Below, piece after piece: positions 3,279 to 47,197 of a stretch of DNA of 64,000 nt. Origin of the DNA: Potamolinea sp. (GTDB lineage Bacteria; Cyanobacteriota; Cyanobacteriia; Cyanobacteriales; Coleofasciculaceae). Every line of letters begins with the position of its first letter. Position 1 is the stretch's first letter. The notes below the pieces were generated by a model that saw only the letters and a program-made list of their open reading frames with translations, was not told where the DNA came from and ran no database searches. The translations under genes and the position numbers were made by a program. The stretch lies in contig JAYFMV010000019.1 in NCBI GenBank assembly GCA_042408245.1, positions 3,511-67,510 on the forward strand, in the 5' to 3' direction.

Positions 3279-3863
3279 ATGCGAGAAAACCCTGACATTT
3301 CTTCACTATCTCCAGCCCTCCAGCGAGTCGCTCTGACACTACGTACAATCGGCAATATTTCCTTCTGGCTCCAATTAGTACTTGGCGTCATTTCCATTGT
3401 GATTTTGCTCGCAGCGAGCGCAAGCAGTGGTTTTAGTCGCCAACCAAACCAAGCAACTAATCAAGGAAGTGGATTTGGCATCTTTTTGGCGATTTGTGGA
3501 CTGGTTACACTAGGTGTAGGCGCTTATTTTGCCTTCCGTTACACGAATATTGCCAAACAAATACTTTCTGGTGATCCTGATCGGCGACCAAGCAAAGCCG
3601 ATACCCTGCAAATAATCAGGCTCGGACTGATTGTCAATCTGGTAGGTATGTTATTGACCATTTTGGGGGCACAAGCGACTATCGGCACCACCGTACTCAA
3701 GTCTTTTGCTCAGGGACAAGGAGCTTTCACAACGGCGATTGACCCTAGCCAGCTTGTGCGTTCATTGGATTTACTGGTTGTACAAGCCAACACCAACACC
3801 ATTTTGGCCCATTTTGCCGGCATCGCCGCTTCACTTTGGCTGTTCAATCGAGTCAATCGGTAA
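3279..3863 (+). CDS. DUF3611-type integral membrane protein
   Basis: 194 aa with 4 predicted TM segments. SLSPALQRVALTLRTIGNISFWLQLVLG is typical of the cyanobacterial DUF3611 family. Confidence 0.55.
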   Translation: MRENPDISSLSPALQRVALTLRTIGNISFWLQLVLGVISIVILLAASASSGFSRQPNQATNQGSGFGIFLAICGLVTLGVGAYFAFRYTNIAKQILSGDPDRRPSKADTLQIIRLGLIVNLVGMLLTILGAQATIGTTVLKSFAQGQGAFTTAIDPSQLVRSLDLLVVQANTNTILAHFAGIAASLWLFNRVNR

Positions 3864-3864
3864 T

Positions 3865-3968
3865 GGTTGTTGGTTGTTGGTTGTTTGTTGTTTGTTTTTA
3901 GCTACGGACTACTGACCACCAACTACTGACCACTGACCACTGACCACTGACCACTGACCACTGACCAA
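3865..3968. repeat. heptamer tandem repeats: (GGTTGTT)-like followed by (CTGACCA)x7
   Basis: Direct reading: ggttgttggttgttggttgtttgttgtttg, then ctgaccactgaccactgacc... These are STRR-type repeats. Confidence 0.9.
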
Positions 3969-4099
3969 TCAATTGTAATTTGAGAACGAACTGTGGCAGA
4001 TTGAGTAGATTGGCGCACGCTTGAAGAGCAGTTCAATCTGCTGAAATAGGCGATTGGGCTTTGCCCACTGCCGAAGGCGATCGCGCACATAAGTCGTAA

Positions 4100-5398
<1,299 letters not shown>

Positions 5399-5477
5399 CA
5401 CTAGGGACACAGACAGCTATCTTGTGTCAGAGATTACAATGAAGAAATGTGATGAAACTTTACATTAAATAATTCTT

Positions 5478-13751: not shown

Positions 13752-14035
13752 GGCTTGTTTGCCAATCTATACCAGCAGGCTATAAGGCCCTGGGGCTATA
13801 AAAACAAAGCCTGCCTACGCAGGCTTACAGTATAGTCCGCGTAGGCGGACTTCGTTCTTGTAGCCGCGACTTTAGTCGTTAGGCGTTTTTGCAAAATTGG
13901 GATGCAACCTTGACACTGGGCTCTGAGGGCTTGATATTCAACAAGGGAACTGCGAGCTTGTATCAAAGTCATCAAAGATACGAGCAGTGGTATGGTAGCA
14001 TTTGCCGTTAAATTAAGGTCTGGGAAGATAAATTC

Positions 14036-25964: not shown

Positions 25965-26089
25965 TTTCCTACTTCCGGGAAGCCAGTACATTGATCTTCC
26001 TGAACTGTTAAAACGTCTACACCTCGCATACGCAACCCAGCAGTAATTGCTCGGTGTATGTGTTCATCCATGTAGAAAGCTAGACTCAC
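25862..26089 (-). pseudogene. DUF5615 (PIN-like/Mut7-C) fragment, probable truncated toxin remnant
   Basis: The first ~35 codons (MDEHIHRAITAGLRMRGVDVLTVQED) match DUF5615. The remainder runs antisense into the kaiC 3' end with no family similarity. It is immediately downstream of its usual partner DUF433. Confidence 0.4.
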
Positions 26090-26430
26090 TTCAATAGTCC
26101 CTGTGTCCGTAGTCTAACAACAAAAGGAGATTCGCCTGCTTCTTTGCATAACTTTTGGGCATATTCTCCTCGTCGCTGGATATCTAGATCAAGTTCCTCT
26201 TTGTTATCCCAGTAATAAGCTAATGCTGAATAAATTTGGCTCATTGTTAAATAGGGATGTTGAAATTGTAACTCTTCAGGACTCCAACCATAGGCGATTT
26301 GAGCCATTACTAATTCAACTACTTTCATCGTAGTTCCAGCAATGATTGGGACATTACCTTCATTCAGTTGTACATATTTATGGGGAGTCGTTATAGATGT
26401 CATTATTATCTGTCTGATTTGATTCCTCAA
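26086..26430 (-). CDS. DUF433 domain protein (antitoxin-like partner of DUF5615)
   Basis: 114-aa ORF with a DUF433-like core. Its stop overlaps the DUF5615 start. Confidence 0.65.
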   Translation of the reverse strand: MRNQIRQIIMTSITTPHKYVQLNEGNVPIIAGTTMKVVELVMAQIAYGWSPEELQFQHPYLTMSQIYSALAYYWDNKEELDLDIQRRGEYAQKLCKEAGESPFVVRLRTQGLLK

Positions 26431-26471
26431 TTGTAATTATCGCCTTTCCTCTCTCGTCATCAGTCACAACC

Positions 26472-26768
26472 TTAGTTTCGCAAAATATACTGACTAATAA
26501 CTTCTTTAAGTTCTTGAGGTGCTTCAATGGCTATAGCTGCTCCCAAATCAGGACGCACAACCCACCACCAAACTAAGGTTTCCATCTGATTGGGTGGCTC
26601 TTCATTGGGACACCATTCGATAGACGATTCATTCACGCCAATAATATTGGCACACAGGTCATTGGCGATGGTGACACGTTCATCAAGTTGCTCAAACTGT
26701 ATGATGTCTTGCCACTCAACTTGATTGGGAATTGAATTTAAAATTGATTGTACGTCTATGGTAAGCAT
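26472..26768 (-). CDS. small acidic protein, candidate immunity protein for the upstream nuclease
   Basis: 98 aa. Its start overlaps the nuclease stop as TAATG, indicating translational coupling. No recognisable family. Confidence 0.45.
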   Translation of the reverse strand: MLTIDVQSILNSIPNQVEWQDIIQFEQLDERVTIANDLCANIIGVNESSIEWCPNEEPPNQMETLVWWWVVRPDLGAAIAIEAPQELKEVISQYILRN

Positions 26769-27178
26769 TAAACTATACCTCCAAAAGCTTTAATAACTCT
26801 CATACCAAAGTCTTGTTGTTCTTCAAAAGATTGAGTACTCAGCCATTCTCTAACCGTGATATTTGTTGATTCAGTTAGATTAGGTTGTACAGAGTTGTAG
26901 AAGTTGGTGATTTCCTGATGAATTGAACCTTTTCCATGTGCAAGTCGGACGAGATTACCTGTATTATGAATGGCTTCAACTCCAAATCTTTGTAGATTTG
27001 AGGTAGTTTGCCCGACAATATGATGCCAAGCTTGTCCTGTACCAGCAGCACCCATTGTTCTTTTAAATTCACCAAATGTTTTAAAGCCTTGACCAGACCT
27101 TTTAGGGGGAATTACTGCTCTTAATTCTAGTTCTCTAGCCAGTTGTCTAGCTATCTCCTGTCTGGTTTCGTCTGTCAC
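26768..27178 (-). CDS. standalone HNH/EndoVII-fold nuclease of the WHH type (polymorphic-toxin-like module)
   Basis: GQAWHHIVGQ...GVEAIHNTGNLVRLAHGKGSIH, i.e. W-H-H, then N and a distal H in HNH spacing. GTG start, with a TAA stop directly upstream in frame. Confidence 0.6.
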   Translation of the reverse strand: MTDETRQEIARQLARELELRAVIPPKRSGQGFKTFGEFKRTMGAAGTGQAWHHIVGQTTSNLQRFGVEAIHNTGNLVRLAHGKGSIHQEITNFYNSVQPNLTESTNITVREWLSTQSFEEQQDFGMRVIKAFGGIV

Positions 27179-27236
27179 TTATGTTGGTTTGATGGCACGG
27201 CTCCATTTTAATCATATCTTTTACGGTGATTGGGTT

Positions 27237-28865
27237 TTAAAAAGGGCGATTATCACGCAGAATTTGCAGATTCTTACGGATGGTAACAGTATTGGGATGA
27301 TTTGTTCCTAATCTTCGTTGGGCAATCTCTAAAGCTTGCAGATACAAAGGTTCAGCTTCAGTGTAGCGTCCTTGAGATTTGTAGAGACCTGCCAAGTTGT
27401 TGAGACTGGTAGCGACAGCGGGATGGTCTTCTCCCAGAAGGCGTTTTGTCAACTCTAAAGCTTGCAGATACAAAGGTTCAGCTTCAGTGTAGCGTCCTTG
27501 AGAATTGTAGAGACCTGCCAAGTTGTTGAGACTGGTAGCGACAGCGGGATGGTCTTCTCCCAGAAGGCGTTTTGTCAACTCTAAAGCTTGCAGATACAAA
27601 GGTTCAGCTTCACTGTAGCGTCCTTGAGATTCGTAGAGTGCTGCCAAATTGTTGAGACTGGTAGCGACATTGGGATGGTCTTCTCCCAGAAGGCGTTTCC
27701 ACAACTCTAAAGCTTGCAGATACAAAGGTTCAGCTTCAGTGTAGCGTCCTTGAGATTTGTAGAGGTATGCCAAGTTGTTGAGACTGGAAGCGACATCGGG
27801 ATGGTCTTCTCCCAGAAGGCGTTTGGTCAACTCTAAAGCTTGCAGATACAAAGGTTCAGCTTCAGTGTAGCGTCCTTGAGATTTGTAGAGGTATGCCAAG
27901 TTGTTGAGACTGGAAGCGACATCGGGATGGTCTTCTCCCAGAAGGCGTTTGGTCAACTCTAAAGCTTGCAGATACAAAGGTTCAGCTTCAGTGTAGCGTC
28001 CTTGAGAATTGTAGAGACCTGCCAAGTTGTTGAGACTGGTAGCTAAATCCTCCTCTAAACCAAACTCTTTTTGTAAATCAATTGCTTTGCCAAGATACTG
28101 GATTGCTAGAATTTGTTCCTGCTGATAATCCTGCGATTCTCCCTGGTCTAATCTTTTTTTATAAATGCTTCCCATTCTGAAATAAAAATCCGCCAAACTA
28201 GGGTCTTTTTTCCCCCTTTGCTGTTCAATTTTTCTAATTAATTCCTGCAAGTCTTTTAGGGGTATCAACGAAGTGCCATCTTCATCTGTACCCAAGAATT
28301 TCTGTTCTTCTGGAGTCAAGCGTAAGTCAGTAAATTCTTTCCTTAAAACTGCACTTCTCTTTTTAGAAGCAAACCGAAAAACACCCTTGCGCCAACTCCA
28401 AAAATCCAGAGCTTTTTTACTCAAACTTGCCTGAATTTGATTCGTCATCCAGATCACAATTGGAAAAGGAAACTCTCGCATTCCTTCCCGCGTCCACTGT
28501 AAATAACCGAAAAAAAGATCTTGCTCTGAGCGTTTTTCACCAAGTTTCAAAAAGTAAAACTGCTCGATACCCGTCACCGTCAAAACCGCTTGTCCACCCT
28601 GACGCAGATACTCATCTTTTGCCACTAACTCAGCAATAGCCGCCCTCAGACTAGGTTCCCTGCGTGCTAATGTTACCCGATAGGGACGCATCTCTGGCTG
28701 CAATTCTGCCTCATATCGTTGAATTATCTGCTCACGGAAATCAAGCTGATCACATACTGCAATCAACAAGCTCAACTTTCCCTGACTTGCTTCAATTGAA
28801 ACCAGCAAATCATCATAACTATCTTCATTTTGATCTGTCGTATCTGGGAAAGATTGAGTGTCCAT
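27237..28865 (-). CDS. TPR (kinesin-light-chain type, TPR_10/12) repeat protein with uncharacterised 280-aa N-terminal domain
   Basis: Six near-identical 42-aa repeats LNNLAxLYxSQGRYTEAEPLYLQALELTKRLLGEDHP. The start ATG abuts the upstream ATPase stop (TAAATG). Confidence 0.8.
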   Translation of the reverse strand: MDTQSFPDTTDQNEDSYDDLLVSIEASQGKLSLLIAVCDQLDFREQIIQRYEAELQPEMRPYRVTLARREPSLRAAIAELVAKDEYLRQGGQAVLTVTGIEQFYFLKLGEKRSEQDLFFGYLQWTREGMREFPFPIVIWMTNQIQASLSKKALDFWSWRKGVFRFASKKRSAVLRKEFTDLRLTPEEQKFLGTDEDGTSLIPLKDLQELIRKIEQQRGKKDPSLADFYFRMGSIYKKRLDQGESQDYQQEQILAIQYLGKAIDLQKEFGLEEDLATSLNNLAGLYNSQGRYTEAEPLYLQALELTKRLLGEDHPDVASSLNNLAYLYKSQGRYTEAEPLYLQALELTKRLLGEDHPDVASSLNNLAYLYKSQGRYTEAEPLYLQALELWKRLLGEDHPNVATSLNNLAALYESQGRYSEAEPLYLQALELTKRLLGEDHPAVATSLNNLAGLYNSQGRYTEAEPLYLQALELTKRLLGEDHPAVATSLNNLAGLYKSQGRYTEAEPLYLQALEIAQRRLGTNHPNTVTIRKNLQILRDNRPF

Positions 28866-30152
28866 TTAAATGTGTCCTCTTTCTTGCAGCAGTTCAGTCA
28901 CAATCGGGTGAACATCGTACCAAAGTTTAGCATTCCTATACTCTAAAATATACAAGCCATGTAGTAAATCCAGAAACTTTTGTTCTTTCGGATCATTGGG
29001 TCGAGATTCCTTGTAAGTTGTTTCTAAAATCTGGTAATCATCTGTACCAATCCGAGTATCGAAATCAAGACTGAGTTTAGTAATAGCTTCCTTGAGAATT
29101 GCCTCATTGATTTTAATATCAGTACGTTCAGGGTAACGCCGAACTAAGCGTAGGCAAATCCGACAACATTCATTGGCAATTCTGATTAACTCCCGCAAGA
29201 CTCCACCGCTATAAATAATAATTTGCTGGGCTGTTTGTTCTTCAATCAATTCATGGGTGAGCCGTTTGTTGAGAATTTCGCAAAGCCTTGCGGTTGGTTC
29301 GGCTTTTGGGACAGCATTCGGTTGACGACGTTCTCCCATAGCAAAGAGTTTTGAGACTGGCATGGGGATAATTTGATTATTCGTCTCTGTCTCAATCAGA
29401 GACATCAGAGAAACTTCTCTTAAGGCAGCAATAGGTATGGTAAAAATAATCCTAAAGTTAGGTTGAAATAATGCCTTAATATGCTCTTGGAATACTTCTC
29501 TTACCAGTTCCAAGTCTAATTTATCTAAGTCGTCAATAATAACCACAATATCTTGATTTGTTGCTGCATAAACAACAGCAGCAATTTCATTGATGCGAGC
29601 AATTAAATCAGAGACTTTGCGGGCAAATTCTTGCTTAATTTCGTTACGAGTAGAGGCATCTGCTTTGAGCTTACCAGAAATTAGTTTGAATAAATTAAAG
29701 CCAACCGAACCTTCAGCTTTGTACTCTTCTGTTTTAATCTGAGTCCGATTAGCAAACCATTGATAAAAAGCATCTTTAGTTGTTTGTTTAATGTTGACTT
29801 GCCGTTTTTCTGCTTGCTCCATGAGGCGAACTGCAATGGCAAAAAGAATATTAATATGATTGACATCTGACATTTCAATCATGTCGGAAATTGAGAAAAT
29901 GACAACAAAATATCTGTCCCCAATTCGCCGACTCAACTCAGAAAGTAAGGTAGATTTACCACAGCCACGATGACCTGTGAAAACAATTTTTCCGTCACCT
30001 GAAGGACTATCTTCAACCAGTTGTTCTAGTTCTTCAATAACTTCAGTACCGTACTCTACTTTAAATTTTTCTAATTCTTTTTGCTCCAAAAGTGGCAGCA
30101 ATTCCAAGTTTCTGTAGGCTTCTCGAAAAGACTCTAATAATTCGTTAGGCAT
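28866..30152 (-). CDS. P-loop NTPase, STAND/AAA_16-like
   Basis: Walker A GHRGCGKSTLL, Walker B IVVIIDDLDKLD, then a helical C-terminal half. Co-transcribed with the TPR gene. Confidence 0.75.
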   Translation of the reverse strand: MPNELLESFREAYRNLELLPLLEQKELEKFKVEYGTEVIEELEQLVEDSPSGDGKIVFTGHRGCGKSTLLSELSRRIGDRYFVVIFSISDMIEMSDVNHINILFAIAVRLMEQAEKRQVNIKQTTKDAFYQWFANRTQIKTEEYKAEGSVGFNLFKLISGKLKADASTRNEIKQEFARKVSDLIARINEIAAVVYAATNQDIVVIIDDLDKLDLELVREVFQEHIKALFQPNFRIIFTIPIAALREVSLMSLIETETNNQIIPMPVSKLFAMGERRQPNAVPKAEPTARLCEILNKRLTHELIEEQTAQQIIIYSGGVLRELIRIANECCRICLRLVRRYPERTDIKINEAILKEAITKLSLDFDTRIGTDDYQILETTYKESRPNDPKEQKFLDLLHGLYILEYRNAKLWYDVHPIVTELLQERGHI

Positions 30153-30222
30153 GATGTTAGGTTAAATGTGAGCTAACTACTCATATCATGCCGCAGCCTG
30201 ACAGTTCTAGATTGTTAAGGAA

Positions 30223-30690
30223 GAAGTCCGACACCCTCAAGGGTGCGGCTACCTGAACAAAGTCCGCCTGCGCGGACTAAATGCCCAAGACTTGTGATAG
30301 CCTGCGTAGGCAGGCTTGGTTCCTGTAGCCCCAGGCTTAAGCCTGCGGGGCTTTTGAGCAACTAAATGCCGAACAATGGTGATCTAAGCCCGACACCCTC
30401 AAGGGTGCGGAACCACACGAACAAAGTCCGCCTGCGCGGACTAAATGCCCAAGACTTGTGATAGCCTGCGTAGGCAGGCTTGGTTCCTGTAGCCCCAGGC
30501 TTAAGCCTGCGGGGCTTTTGAGCAACTAAATGCCGAACAATGGTGATCTAAGCCCGACACCCTCAAGGGTGCGGAACCACACGAACAAAGTCCGCCTGCG
30601 CGGACTAAATGCCCAAGACTTGTGATAGCCTGCGTAGGCAGGCTTGGTTCCTGTAGCCCCAGGCTTCAGCCTGCGGGACTTTGATGAGAA
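30223..30690. repeat. three tandem copies of a ~163-bp unit rich in internal hairpins
   Basis: Units start at 30223, 30386 and 30550. Copies 2 and 3 are near-identical. Internal palindromes include caccctcaagggtg, gtccgcctgcgcggac, agcctgcgtaggcaggct and caggcttaagcctg. The last copy overlaps the final 8 codons of the MVP homolog. Confidence 0.9.
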
Positions 30691-38596: not shown

Positions 38597-40756
38597 ATGA
38601 GAACACTGATCATTGACAACTACGATTCCTACACGTTTAACCTATATCAGGCGATCGCCCAAGTGAATGGAGAACTTCCTCTAGTGGTTCGCAATGACCA
38701 GTTTGAATGGGAAGACCTGAAAGCATTGAACTTCGATAATGTGGTAATTTCACCTGGCCCCGGTCGTCCAGAAAAGCAATCAGATTTTGGCGTTTGTAGA
38801 CAGGTGATTGAGAATGTGGATGTGCCCTTGCTAGGAGTTTGTCTGGGGCACCAAGGACTTGGCTACCTATTTGGTGGAACAATCATTCATGCACCAGAAG
38901 TTCGACACGGTAGACTCAGTAAAATTTATCATAATGGCTCTGAATTATTCCAAGGCATTCCTAGTTCATTTTCTGTGGTACGCTACCACTCCTTGTTAGT
39001 TGCAGATCAATTACCTGATTGTCTAGAAAAGATTGCTTGGACTGAGGAAGGATTGGTGATGGGATTGCGTCATCGGGCTCTACCATTTTGGGGTGTACAG
39101 TTTCACCCAGAGTCTATCTGTACAGAATATGGACAAACATTACTAGAAAACTTTAGAAATATCACGCTGCAATTTACAAAAAAATCCTCAAAAAGTCCAG
39201 AAAAGCAGTGTTGGACAGGATATGGATCTACTTCTCCTCCTATTAATAAACTATATCAAAAACAGTCACCTAAATTTGAATTTCATAAACGCAAACTGGA
39301 TATTTGCCCGAATACAGAACAAATATTTGTCCATCTGTTTCAGCAAGCACCAAATGCCTTTTGGTTAGACAGTAGCCGTGTAGAAAACGGTTTATCTCGC
39401 TTCTCATTTATGGGTGATGGAAATGGGGCAAACAGTGTATTAGTGCGCTACCATACCAAAACACAAGAACTCATCATCACACAGTCAGATAGTGTGACCA
39501 GTCGTACCGAGAGTATTTTTGAGTATCTCAAGCGGGAAATTGACCTCCGACGTTGCCAAGATTTGGAGTTACCGTTTGATTTTAACTGTGGATTTGTTGG
39601 CTATTTTGGCTATGAACTCAAGGCAGAATCTGTCCTGCCATTGATGCATTCTTCACCATTACCTGATGCAATTTTCTTACTTGCCGATCGCCTGATTGCC
39701 ATCGATCACCAAGAACAGTGTCTTTACTTGCTACACCTAGTTAAAAAAGGGCAAACAGAACAGGCAGAAATTTGGTTTGATACTATCACTCAAAAACTCG
39801 AAAACCTGACTCCTCTTCATCCCCTGATACCCCAGGGAAATAGTAAGCAAATAAAGTTTCGTTTAAGTCGAAGTTACCAAACTTACATTAATGATATACA
39901 CCATTGCTTAGACGAAATTTATGAAGGAGAAACCTATCAAGTTTGCCTCACCAATCAGCTTCATACTGATATAACCCCCGATCCATTGACGTTCTACCGC
40001 ACATTACGTCGCCTCAATCCTGCCCCTTATGCTGCATTTTTGCGCTTTGGGGAAATAGCGATCGCCTGTTCGTCTCCAGAGCGATTTTTGCGGATTGATC
40101 AGCAGGGTTGGGTGGAAACTAAGCCTATTAAAGGAACGCTACGACGAGGAGAATTCCCTGAAGAAGATTCCGTCTTTCGGGAACAGTTAAGAAACAGTGA
40201 AAAAGACCGAGCTGAGAATCTGATGATTGTGGATTTGTTACGCAATGATTTGGGACGAGTCTGTGAAGTGGGTAGCGTTCACGTACCCAAGTTAATGGAT
40301 GTAGAAACCTATGCGACGGTGCATCAATTGGTGACAACAGTACGTGGGCATTTGCGACCAGATTTACAAGCATTAGATTGCATTCAGGCGGTATTTCCAG
40401 GAGGCTCGATGACAGGTGCACCTAAGATAAGAACCATGCAAATTATTGATCGACTCGAACAAGAAGCAAGGGGAGTGTATTCAGGGGCGATCGGTTTTTT
40501 GGGATTGAATGGTTCAGCCGATTTGAATATTGTTATTCGTACTGCTGTTCTGACTCCTAATCAAACTTATATTGGTATCGGTGGCGGTATTGTGGCACTT
40601 TCTGACCCTGAGATGGAGTTTCAAGAAACCATGCTTAAAGCGCAAGCCTTAATCCATGCTATGGTTTTCACAGTTCACGGAACATTTGAGCCAGATCATT
40701 ATCAGATTCTGGGAGTAGAATCAACAATTGATGATAGTTGTAAACTACCTATTTAA
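38597..40756 (+). CDS. fused glutamine amidotransferase / chorismate-binding enzyme, aminodeoxychorismate synthase (PabA-PabB fusion)-like
   Basis: N-terminal class-I GATase (LGVCLGHQ, catalytic Cys). C-terminal chorismate-binding domain with PIKGT (Lys as in PabB; TrpE has PIAGT). The G-to-E domain order matches PabAB/PapA, not TrpEG/PhzE. Confidence 0.8.
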   Translation: MRTLIIDNYDSYTFNLYQAIAQVNGELPLVVRNDQFEWEDLKALNFDNVVISPGPGRPEKQSDFGVCRQVIENVDVPLLGVCLGHQGLGYLFGGTIIHAPEVRHGRLSKIYHNGSELFQGIPSSFSVVRYHSLLVADQLPDCLEKIAWTEEGLVMGLRHRALPFWGVQFHPESICTEYGQTLLENFRNITLQFTKKSSKSPEKQCWTGYGSTSPPINKLYQKQSPKFEFHKRKLDICPNTEQIFVHLFQQAPNAFWLDSSRVENGLSRFSFMGDGNGANSVLVRYHTKTQELIITQSDSVTSRTESIFEYLKREIDLRRCQDLELPFDFNCGFVGYFGYELKAESVLPLMHSSPLPDAIFLLADRLIAIDHQEQCLYLLHLVKKGQTEQAEIWFDTITQKLENLTPLHPLIPQGNSKQIKFRLSRSYQTYINDIHHCLDEIYEGETYQVCLTNQLHTDITPDPLTFYRTLRRLNPAPYAAFLRFGEIAIACSSPERFLRIDQQGWVETKPIKGTLRRGEFPEEDSVFREQLRNSEKDRAENLMIVDLLRNDLGRVCEVGSVHVPKLMDVETYATVHQLVTTVRGHLRPDLQALDCIQAVFPGGSMTGAPKIRTMQIIDRLEQEARGVYSGAIGFLGLNGSADLNIVIRTAVLTPNQTYIGIGGGIVALSDPEMEFQETMLKAQALIHAMVFTVHGTFEPDHYQILGVESTIDDSCKLPI

Positions 40757-40796
40757 TGTAATATATAGTGTGGTAAATTAGCAGGAAGACTTAGTT

Positions 40797-41088
40797 ATGA
40801 AGCAGCTAGAACCGTTTAGAAAAAAAATTGACGACTTAGATCTTCAGATTATCGAGCTTTTGGGCCAGCGGTTTGACATTTGTAGACAGGTTGCTCATTT
40901 AAAAAAGGCAGAAAACATTCCTATGATGCAATCAGGACGCAGTTGAAGAAGTAAAAAACAATTGTCAGGAACTAGCTGTAAAAAACTCAATGAGACCCAG
41001 ATTTTATGCTGGAAGTTGTACAGCCTAATTATTGAGGAAAGCTGTCGAACGGAAGATGCAATTATTGAAAAAAAATGATTCAAGGAGA
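40797..41088 (+). pseudogene. AroQ-class chorismate-mutase-like gene disrupted by two compensating frameshifts
   Basis: The frame from 40797 gives MKQLEPFRKKIDDLDLQIIELLGQRFDICRQVAHLKKAENIPMMQ, then a TGA at 40944. The +1 frame gives QDAVEEVKNNCQELAVKNS. The original frame then resumes with LNETQILCWKLYSLIIEESCRTED. All three pieces align to the AroQ helices. The frame shifts flank A6 runs. Confidence 0.5.
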
Positions 41089-41098
41089 ATAAAATTTT

Positions 41099-41896
41099 AT
41101 GGTTCTGGATACTCGCAATCATGACCCGGCTCAAGAGGTTGCTGCCGAGAAAATCTTGCTTGATCGACTTGATAAGTACTACCTAGATATTATCAATTGG
41201 TTTTTTCAAACGATACTGCAAGATTTAACACCAAACAAAATTCTGGATGTTGGTTGCGGAACAGGTCATCTCTTAGAGTTTTGCGAGCGAACTTTGAAAA
41301 CGACTGTTACTCCATCTTTTTATGGAGTTGATCTCAATCAGTATCTGATTACTAATGCGAACCAGCGTTTTCCATCCTATCAATTTGAAGCAGCAGATGC
41401 GACTCACTTGCCTTATCCAAACGAAACTTTTGATCTCGTTTATGTCTCGACTGTACTTGCTCATGTACCAAGTGGTATGGACATTTTAAAGGAAATGGTG
41501 CGAGTCACAAAAATAGGTGGAACGATCGCAGTTTTAGATCAAGATTTTGAAACAGCGGTGCTTTATCCAGGTGACAAACAACTCACTCGTAGTGTTCTCA
41601 ATGCTGCTGCAGATTACTGGAGTGATGGTTGGATTGGTCGAAAATTACCCAGTATGTTTAAACATTTAGGACTGACTGAAATCAAAGTTGATGCTCGTGT
41701 TCGCATCGATCGCCACTTTGACCAACCTTTCTTTGAACGAATTCGCAATTGGATTGTTGAAGCAGGGTTTCCGTCAGACCAAGCAGAACGATGGTTTTCA
41801 GAGCTTTGTCAACAAGCAAGTATCGATGAGTTCTTATTTACTCGCAATTTCTATGCAGTTGCCGGGATTAAACAGATCAAGAGTCTGAGCGAATAA
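41099..41896 (+). CDS. class I SAM-dependent methyltransferase
   Basis: Motif I ILDVGCGTGHL, motif post-I YGVDLN, Rossmann fold. Confidence 0.8.
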   Translation: MVLDTRNHDPAQEVAAEKILLDRLDKYYLDIINWFFQTILQDLTPNKILDVGCGTGHLLEFCERTLKTTVTPSFYGVDLNQYLITNANQRFPSYQFEAADATHLPYPNETFDLVYVSTVLAHVPSGMDILKEMVRVTKIGGTIAVLDQDFETAVLYPGDKQLTRSVLNAAADYWSDGWIGRKLPSMFKHLGLTEIKVDARVRIDRHFDQPFFERIRNWIVEAGFPSDQAERWFSELCQQASIDEFLFTRNFYAVAGIKQIKSLSE

Positions 41897-41920
41897 TTCA
41901 GTTCTACCAAAAACTCTTAA

Positions 41921-42796
41921 ATGAATACTATTTACTTTGATTCTAGTGTTAGAGATGATCTGAGACGGCAGCGCCTTTATAATGGTCAAATCTTCGCCTT
42001 TTCTCCTCGTCCAAGTGTTAGCGCACTCCGACAATTAGTCTGCAATCTGATCGAGGCAACTTTCGGTTCACCGCTACCTCCAATGGTTGAGAAAAATTTG
42101 CCAGTTGAGGAATTTTTGGCTGCTGAATCTTCCCTTAAACAGCAGATTATAAATCACCCTCAAATCAAGCAATTGATTCAGTCGTTGCTGCAAGAGTTTG
42201 ATTGTGACTTGAGCAAAACTTATTTTGATTTACCACAGTTACGAATCGTACCTTTCCGAGGATATTTGCCAAACAATGAAGGACTGTTTCACGATCCGCA
42301 TAGAGATACTTGGTATGCTGCACCTCAGTGCTTAATTAACTGGTGGATACCCCTCTACGAATTTGAATCTGAAAGTGCATTGGCATTCCATCCCTTGTAC
42401 TGGAATCAGCCAGTTAACAATGACTCTCGTAACTTTAATCAAGAACAAGATTATAAGACCAACTTTCGCGAGGCTGAATTTCCGCATCCAGAACAAAAGA
42501 TCGAAATTGAGCCAGAAATTCGGATCGTCTGTCCAACAGGGGGAGTGATTCTCTTTTCAGGAGCACAGATGCACTCTGCAGTTCCCAACACTTCTGGATT
42601 GACAAGGTACAGTCTTGATCTAAGAACAGTGCATTTTGATGAGATCGTGACTAGGGGTGGTGCACCCAATATTGACTCTAATTCAACCAGTGCTTTGCTA
42701 ACAGATTTTATGCGAGGGACAGACCTAGCACATTTTCCTGATGATTTGATGATATCTCACCAGAAGAGTTCCGTAGCTTTGCCAACATTAATCTGA
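41921..42796 (+). CDS. PhyH-family Fe(II)/2-oxoglutarate-dependent dioxygenase (probable)
   Basis: FHDPHRDTW (H-x-D) and C-terminal MHSAVPNTSGLTRYS (H..N.S...R.S), the PhyH hallmark. Confidence 0.55.
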   Translation: MNTIYFDSSVRDDLRRQRLYNGQIFAFSPRPSVSALRQLVCNLIEATFGSPLPPMVEKNLPVEEFLAAESSLKQQIINHPQIKQLIQSLLQEFDCDLSKTYFDLPQLRIVPFRGYLPNNEGLFHDPHRDTWYAAPQCLINWWIPLYEFESESALAFHPLYWNQPVNNDSRNFNQEQDYKTNFREAEFPHPEQKIEIEPEIRIVCPTGGVILFSGAQMHSAVPNTSGLTRYSLDLRTVHFDEIVTRGGAPNIDSNSTSALLTDFMRGTDLAHFPDDLMISHQKSSVALPTLI

Positions 42797-45927: not shown

Positions 45928-47197
45928 GTGTTAAACCTGACCTACGAATTCAAGGTAATCCCAACGCCAGAACAGGTTCAGCTTATCGAACGCACGTTAA
46001 CGGTGTGCCGGAAAGTTTGGAACTTTGCCTTGCGTGAACGAAAAGATTGGTCGAACTCTCGTAAGTGTCAGATTAATGCTTGCTCTATTTCTGGAGAGTT
46101 CATTATTCCTGCCGACACCCCCTATCCCAACTATGCCCAACAATGCAAATCGTTAACTAAAGCCAAGACCGAATTTCCAGAACTGGCAACGGTTAACGCC
46201 CAAGCCTTACAACAAGTCCTCAAGAGACTGGAAGCAGCTTTTGTTGATATGAAGCGCAAGGGTATGGGTTTTCCTCGATTCAAGAACCGATACCGGATGC
46301 GGTCATTCGTGTATCCTCAACTGGGCAGGGGGCAGCTTCTCTTAGGAAACCAAGTTAAGTTGCCTCAGTTAGGGTGGTTGGAATATGTCAAGTCAAGAGA
46401 AATACCAGATGGGTTTGTAGTTAAACAAGCTCGAATCATTGGTAAAGCATCTGGCTATTTCATCCAATTGGCGTTGGAATGTGATGTATCTGTTCCTGAT
46501 GTCATGGCCTCATGGTCATCCTGTTGGAATTGACCTGGGGTTAGGCAAATTTGTCGCAACTTCTGACGGACTCGTGATTGATAGACCCAGATTTTTAGGC
46601 TTGCTGCATCGGAAGCTGAAATTGCTCCAACGCAGACTTAAGCACAAGAAAAAGGGGTCAAATAATCGTCACAAACTCAACAGGAAGATTGCCCGGTTGC
46701 ATCAGCACATCAGTGATACCCGCAAGGACTGGCACTTCAAATTAGCCCACAAGCTGTGTGACGGTGCTGGGATGATATTCGTTGAGGATATCGACTTCCG
46801 AGTATGGGCAAAAGGGCTGTTTGGGAAACACACCCTTGACGCTGGTTTTGGGCAGTTTTTGTCCATCTTGAAGTTTGTGTGCTTCAAGCGCGGCGTGTAC
46901 TTCGACAAAGTAGATAAGAATTACACCTCACAAGTCTGTCCTCAATGTGATGCACACACAGGCAAAAAAGAACTGTCTGACAGGGTTCACGCTTGTCCTG
47001 AATGTGGGTACACAACACATAGAGATGTAGCAGCAGCACAAATTGTCCGTAATCGTGGACTGTCTGGGGTGGGACGCATCCTGGACGAGCAAGAAAATGC
47101 CTGTGGAGACGGTCTGGGGGGAACGGGAAACCGTTTACTTAAGAGTCCGAGAAGCAGGAAGAAGAGTGGAGAGGCGTGTCTTAAGACCGCCTCGTAA
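45928..47197 (+). mobile_element. tnpB: IS200/IS605-family (IS1341-like) tnpB, frameshifted
   Basis: Two overlapping frames, 45928-46533 and 46439-47197. VGIDLGLGKFVATSDG (RuvC-I), C-terminal Zn-ribbon CPQCDAHTG...CPECGYTTHRD. No tnpA. Downstream hairpin tccccttgatttaatcaaggggag at 47211-47236. Confidence 0.8.

Follow-up and report, generated by a model that had tools for sequence, protein, structure and literature searches.

The p-aminophenylalanine pathway comprises PapA, PapB and PapC, of which PapC is a 4-amino-4-deoxyprephenate dehydrogenase (PMC7570522). The PapB/CmlD-type mutase of Streptomyces is small, with the AroQ fold and a length of about 95 amino acids, and its gene lies directly downstream of that for aminodeoxychorismate synthase (PMC7570522). 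Other described proteins with the AroQ fold are the chorismate mutases and the isochorismate-pyruvate lyase PchB (3rmi, 1ecm and 2h9c). The DNA analyzed here, which we designated the window, is a stretch of 64,000 nt from the 89,064-bp contig JAYFMV010000019.1 of a Potamolinea sp. MAG deposited at NCBI (GCA_042408245.1). It contains a gene for a mutase of this size and probably of this type, and as in Streptomyces this gene lies directly downstream of an aminodeoxychorismate synthase gene; the best NCBIfam model for its product is TIGR01803, 'CM-like'. The locus differs from the Streptomyces systems in the partners of the mutase, namely a methyltransferase of UbiE type and a PhyH-like dioxygenase, with no PapC-like protein within about 6 kb, and in that the ORF of the mutase is interrupted in the contig. 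The coordinates of the gene, its segments and its neighbors are collected in Table 1.

Table 1 Features of the mutase gene and its cassette in the window
Feature	Position	Strand	Basis
AroQ/CM_2, PapB-like mutase gene remnant	40797..41078	+	Pfam CM_2, TIGR01803, orthologue alignments
N-terminal ORF, frame 1, 49 aa, helix 1 and loop	40797..40946	+	ORF listing, Pfam CM_2
Insertion 1, C in GGACG(C)AGTT, frame 1 to 2	40940	+	Alignment and BLAST indel listing against orthologues
Helix-2 segment VEEVKNNCQELAVKNSM, frame 2	40941..40993	+	Translation, orthologue comparison
Insertion 2, G (or adjacent A) in AATGA(G)ACCC, frame 2 to 3	40994	+	Alignment, BLAST indel listing
Segment (N/D)PDFMLE, frame 3	40995..41015	+	Translation, orthologue comparison
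Insertion 3, T (or adjacent G) in GGAAG(T)TGTAC, frame 3 to 1	41016	+	Alignment, BLAST indel listing
C-terminal helix-3 segment (V/L)YSLIIEESCRTEDAIIEKK and stop, frame 1	41017..41078	+	Translation, orthologue alignment
Fused PabA-PabB aminodeoxychorismate synthase, 719 aa, intact	38597..40756	+	No indel against L009, L015, L018
SAM-dependent (UbiE-like) methyltransferase, 265 aa, intact	41099..41896	+	Downstream gene
PhyH-like Fe(II)/2-oxoglutarate dioxygenase, 291 aa, intact	41921..42796	+	Last conserved cassette gene

A chorismate mutase-like (AroQ) gene beginning at 40797 had been proposed from the letters and their ORFs, before any database search (the sequence-only reading), and profile searches bore this out. 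The frame-corrected 93-aa product covered positions 2-79 of the 80 positions of the Pfam CM_2 profile (PF01817; gathering score 27 bits) with a score of 69.4 bits, and so matched the profile of the AroQ fold across its length. The 49-aa N-terminal ORF scored 46.9 bits by itself, and the frame-1 read-through scored 54.2 bits. Helices 1-3 do not lie in one uninterrupted ORF, and three +1 corrections were needed to join them. Among curated models, TIGR01803 was the best for the repaired protein at 70.7 bits, which is below its curated cut-off of 73.35 bits; three intact cyanobacterial orthologues likewise scored below the cut-off, at 67.8-71.9 bits. A sequence search also matched the repaired protein to solved AroQ proteins with E-values of 2e-8 to 3e-3. 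The likeness to the AroQ chorismate mutases and PchB lies in the CM_2 match across the full domain, whereas in sequence these proteins are distant relatives only, and the genomic context of the window gene points to amino-chorismate and not to chorismate or isochorismate. The gene at this locus is real and specifies a small mutase with the AroQ fold. From its genomic context, the mutase is probably a PapB-like 4-amino-4-deoxychorismate mutase; by analogy it is predicted to work, probably, like PapB on aminodeoxychorismate. Membership of the PapB family is partly supported, and more distant homologues (about 50% identity) bear the JGI name '4-amino-4-deoxychorismate mutase'.

The mutase gene is the second of four genes in a compact cassette (38597-42796) that encodes, in order, PabAB, the mutase, the methyltransferase and the dioxygenase. 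The PabA-PabB fusion matched TIGR00553 (pabB) with 382 bits and ends 40 nt upstream of the mutase gene, and the Shine-Dalgarno sequence of the methyltransferase gene is inside the 3' end of the mutase gene. The order of pabAB and mutase was kept in 15/15 orthologous loci, and an adjoining aminodeoxychorismate synthase gene is a feature shared with PapB. The order of all four genes was kept in Potamolinea, Microcoleus, Elainella, Brasilonema and Plectonema (the window, L001, L004, L005, L006, L009, L015, L021 and L022), while the genes that flank the cassette differ between genera. No PapC-like dehydrogenase was found within about 6 kb of the cassette in the window, L001, L004 or L005, and no NRPS was found near the cassette. 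In the library searched, no paper described the cassette or linked such a pathway with cyanobacteria. We regard the cassette, with its pabAB, PapB-like mutase, methyltransferase and PhyH-like dioxygenase genes and no PapC, as a more promising lead than the frameshift itself. In the Brasilonema angustatum MAG (L005), the pabAB fusion is split into overlapping ORFs (3305-4657 and 4531-5466), with the GATase and N-terminal domain in one ORF and the chorismate-binding domain in the other; this is an apparent frameshift, again in a MAG.

In comparison with every orthologue, the window gene carries three single-base +1 insertions within 77 nt, which take the reading frame from 1 to 2, from 2 to 3 and from 3 back to 1 for a net change of +3. 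The gene is 282 nt long with its stop codon, or 279 nt without the three inserted bases. The sequence-only reading had proposed two compensating shifts, the first at 40930-40945 and the return at 40980-40990. C40940 falls inside the first of these ranges; the return is instead made in two steps, both of which lie beyond the second range. Its description of N- and C-terminal parts that share a frame and enclose a TGA was accurate, since both parts are in frame 1 and the middle is out of frame. The enclosed TGA (40944-40946), the only in-frame TGA of frame 1 before the end of the gene, is the product of insertion 1, which fell at an Arg codon that is CGA in all relatives, and it closes the 49-aa ORF that begins with ATG 40797. 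The gene had been drawn as far as 41088 and ends at TGA 41076-41078. The resulting short 3' end (EKK*, with TTTT before the next ATG) is the same length as that of the Microcoleus allele L001, and is therefore a natural variant.

Both switches had been placed next to AAAAAA tracts, an arrangement that the alignments did not support. The insertions are outside homopolymers (0/3 in an A run), and of the A6 tracts, the one at 40953-40958 follows its nearest insertion by 13 nt and the one at 40980-40985 precedes its own by 9 nt. In L021, L015 and L009, the second A6 tract and the 5' A8 and A6 runs are exactly as long as in the window, and the first A6 tract was created by substitutions that left the length unchanged. 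Five single-base indels in the compared region are unique to the window, and all are insertions (40772, 40788, 40940, 40994 and 41016, spanning 245 nt). Long-read and older platforms usually err in homopolymers, and the non-homopolymer sites of the insertions count against an error in the contig.

Orthologous loci were collected by way of the adjacent methyltransferase and of homologous proteins, and were then compared by nucleotide alignment and BLAST indel listing. The 15 loci belonged to at least six genera, were drawn from several assemblies made independently, and came from Microcoleus-like MAGs, Elainella, Brasilonema, Plectonema, GCA_965191975.1, Logan assemblies and JGI metagenomes. 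All 15 carried an uninterrupted mutase gene of 92-97 codons in the same synteny, between the fused pabA-pabB gene and the methyltransferase gene. The three 16-mers that bear the insertions were absent from 15/15 orthologous loci and from all 22 loci fetched, and a 24-mer across insertion 1 had no match in the metagenome contig collection. The 49-aa ORF is known from this MAG only. The closest intact allele, L021, shares the distinctive N-terminus of the window protein. A search for the intact form of the window allele itself, as eight repaired protein variants, found none in a collection of 15 billion proteins; this counts against an error in the contig.

These comparisons bear directly on the possibility that the shifts are read through by programmed ribosomal frameshifting or transcriptional slippage, in which three successive +1 events would yield the full-length enzyme. 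At first sight, site 1 resembles the programmed +1 frameshift of prfB, as a 0-frame UGA directly follows the point of the shift and an AGGA precedes this stop by nine nucleotides, and the net change of +3 returns the C-terminus to the starting frame. The likeness is superficial. The sequence-only reading had allowed that orthologues might share the arrangement, and none of the 15 loci carried any of the shifts, which excludes a conserved recoding event. The AGGA is ordinary coding sequence (Ser-Gly-Arg) that is also present in the closest intact relatives. In contrast to prfB, three separate shifts would be needed; by our reading of the codons, none of the P-site triplets AGU, AUG and GAA is able to re-pair in +1, and neither a stop nor a slippery motif occurs at sites 2 and 3. 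The same A-run positions and lengths described above argue against slippage, no Rfam match was found in window 40000-42000, and three consecutive low-efficiency events would be expected to give negligible product. We consider recoding hardly credible for this gene.

Substitutions were then a guide to how long the gene has been broken. The omega of the repaired mutase gene against L009 (94% nucleotide identity) was 0.07, and that of the flanking genes was 0.13-0.27. Polarized with L017, L015, L018 and L009, the window-specific substitutions in the repaired gene comprised 7 that were synonymous and 2 that were not (P about 0.001 under neutrality). Of these 9, 8 occupy third positions of codons in the repaired frame; between insertions 1 and 2, the substitutions at 40953, 40956 and 40959 are all at third positions of frame 2. 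The mutase gene therefore kept changing, in the corrected frame, in the manner of an intact coding sequence until practically the present.

An old, decaying pseudogene, whose function was lost long ago and which has accumulated indels since, would explain a frame that is broken at three places and a density of window-unique substitutions that is higher in the mutase gene (3.9%) than in its flanks (0.9-1.6%). The extra substitutions are nearly all synonymous in the repaired frame, however, and this excess together with the low omega contradicts an old pseudogene. The closeness of the intact L021 allele, with the same N-terminus, is also against it, as is the state of the rest of the gene: the start codon and Shine-Dalgarno sequence were not lost, and no deletions or further stops were found in the corrected frames. 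We regard long-standing decay as very improbable. In bacterial mutation spectra, 1-bp insertions outside homopolymers are far rarer than substitutions, and deletions predominate. Because of this rarity, three independent neutral insertions should have been accompanied by many more substitutions than were seen. Neutral accumulation is thus contradicted by the data, and real insertions would demand a complex event of very recent date.

A second lesion in the same gene was found in a sister population. In the JGI contig L017, the mutase gene has a 78-nt in-frame deletion, by which helix 2 is lost and a 71-aa product remains, and its flanks are 100% identical to those of the intact L021, from a sister JGI sample, over 976 + 719 nt. 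The deletion lies at junction 976/977 relative to L021 5610-5687, with AG microhomology at the junction. On the window, its edges map to 40935/36 and 41016-18, at distances of 5 nt from insertion 1 and 0-2 nt from insertion 3; the probability that three random sites in the gene would fall this near to the edges by chance was 0.003-0.009. The L017 allele shows that this segment of the gene is structurally polymorphic in closely related populations.

The quality of the contig was assessed with independent assemblies. Because the contig is from a MAG, its sequence is a population consensus and not that of a clone. The Logan contig L019 (SRR27558508), a k-mer assembly of a sample that holds the same strain, matches window 34998-40611 with 100% identity and stops 186 nt short of the mutase gene, and L020 (Logan, SRR27558508) encodes exact window proteins from about 53.06-57.68 kb of the window. 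Independent contigs agreed with the window at 100% wherever they overlapped it, over 10.2 kb, and the contig is therefore generally accurate, which counts against an error. Over 6.4 kb + 1.7 kb aligned with the 94%-identical L009, no indels were found inside other coding genes; relative to L009, one further coding indel changes the PhyH-like gene at its 3' end. The Logan data are less complete around the mutase gene. Exact copies of window proteins were found there for 0/5 proteins from 40.6-49.1 kb versus 7/10 elsewhere in the window (p = 0.019), and Logan held no exact copies of the window PabAB, methyltransferase, PhyH, SLH protein or RsmB. This gap from 40611 onward points to low coverage or heterogeneity just before the gene and beyond it. 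Potamolinea contigs have been assembled from PacBio HiFi reads with metaFlye and racon polishing in a study that is not tied to this contig or to SRR27558508 (PMC11416633).

A generally poor assembly was considered and rejected, as a window-wide audit of adjacent same-strand ORFs found one other split gene only. This is an IS605-family tnpB, which is present as overlapping ORFs at 45928-46533 and 46439-47197 (+), with the HTH domain in the first and the RuvC and zinc-ribbon domains in the second. Its frame apparently changes at about 46480-46520, just 5' of the GIDLG motif, a position that is approximate because it was placed without a close reference. In the NB-ARC/TPR region (33801-36302, -), the frame at 33801-35915 is preceded by a 127-aa ORF (35916-36299) in the same frame with one stop between them, and the pair represents either two genes or one gene with a nonsense interruption; L019 has this sequence too.

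The sequence-only reading had offered three explanations for the broken frame. Decay is contradicted by the substitutions, and slippage finds no support in the positions of the insertions, the orthologues or the Rfam search; the third, an error of sequencing or assembly, is the best supported, and we infer that it is the probable one, with appreciable room for doubt. More precisely, the consensus of a population assembly would be wrong locally, at a place of structural heterogeneity. The population would be heterogeneous at the mutase gene in the manner of its sister, whose deletion allele has nearly the same boundaries; this heterogeneity could have led to an erroneous consensus and so to three spurious bases that are presumably absent from the underlying DNA. 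The organism itself would then encode an intact enzyme of about 92 aa. An error is favored since the insertions are unique to the contig and clustered locally, the contig is of MAG origin, the substitutions show a purifying pattern, the insertions coincide with the edges of the deletion, and the Logan assemblies have a gap at this place. In these respects, a lesion confined to one MAG contig, clustered, with its coding signal intact and at a heterogeneous, poorly assembled spot, resembles known frameshift artefacts of MAGs, and it differs from them in having its indels outside homopolymers and in a contig that is clean elsewhere. For these two reasons, an error would need a local cause, and read heterogeneity is a candidate.

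The same observations can be turned toward real insertions, that is, a very recent strain-specific knockout by a single complex event or a burst of nearby events. The accuracy of the contig elsewhere, the location of the insertions outside homopolymers and the lack of any recorded intact copy of this exact allele in the 15-billion-protein collection all favor it. So does the 78-nt deletion, an independent and very recent lesion of the same segment in a sister population, which suggests that some populations can do without the gene or are under selection against it; as this real-looking allele shows that natural loss can occur, a genuine knockout is less surprising. A knockout would have to account, however, for three +1 insertions and zero deletions in 77 nt on a branch that still shows the synonymous excess, and for a downstream methyltransferase and dioxygenase that are intact and constrained. 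To our knowledge, no mutational process has been documented that yields clustered +1 insertions outside repeats. We consider a knockout unlikely, yet not so unlikely as to be set aside. Were it true, the cassette would be non-functional at the mutase step, with the 49-aa stump as the sole product, and the lesion would be one strain-specific loss in an uncharacterized cyanobacterial cassette, of relevance to the pathway and to gene loss at the population level. More doubtful still is the proposition that the insertions are real and that inactivating lesions have struck the helix-2 segment repeatedly, and very recently, in populations of benthic Potamolinea, as a triple insertion in one and a 78-nt deletion in its sister. 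Either a hotspot of mutation at this place or selection to silence the amino-chorismate branch while pabAB is kept would then be implied.

Several mechanisms that could have produced the insertions were tried and rejected. A templated mutation would require a donor, and no second mutase copy was found in the window; the sole candidate for a quasi-palindrome had arms of 9 nt at 89% and was unconvincing. Mutation driven by a fold of the DNA was not supported, as the segment folds no better than shuffled sequences (z = -0.35). The insertions could be written as SNP alleles blended side by side (CG(C)A, A(G)AC and G(T)TG), but by a rough estimate ~40% of random insertions by a wobble site would fit equally, and the pattern was given no weight. 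Over window 38522-42084, the informative sites alternate between L021-like and L015-like states in runs of ~100 nt, which indicates a fine recombination mosaic among these populations. A chimeric assembly that arose by a haplotype switch in the gene was rejected because this alternation runs through the whole 3.5 kb.

The interrupted gene has consequences for public records under the favored reading of a consensus error. The NCBI protein MFB8788244.1, named 'chorismate mutase', is this 49-aa stump, and its neighbors are MFB8788243.1 (aminodeoxychorismate synthase) and MFB8788245.1 (methyltransferase), whereas the true product is probably the 92-aa enzyme.

Two further observations were made elsewhere in the window. 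The interval from kaiC to a DUF429 gene is ~11.7 kb in the window (25981-37727) versus ~3.2 kb in L009 (1727-4935); in the window it contains TPR and NB-ARC proteins, a GIY-YIG nuclease, a DUF433 protein and others, and in L009 a DNA methylase. The interval looks like a strain-variable island. Units of ~85 nt occur three times, 164 nt apart, upstream of an 889-aa gene, and are 78% similar to sequence downstream of chlI in related loci; the positions concerned are 30267-30683 and 13769-13827 in the window, 11154-11243 in L009 and 4809-4898 in L011. The units may represent a dispersed short repeat.
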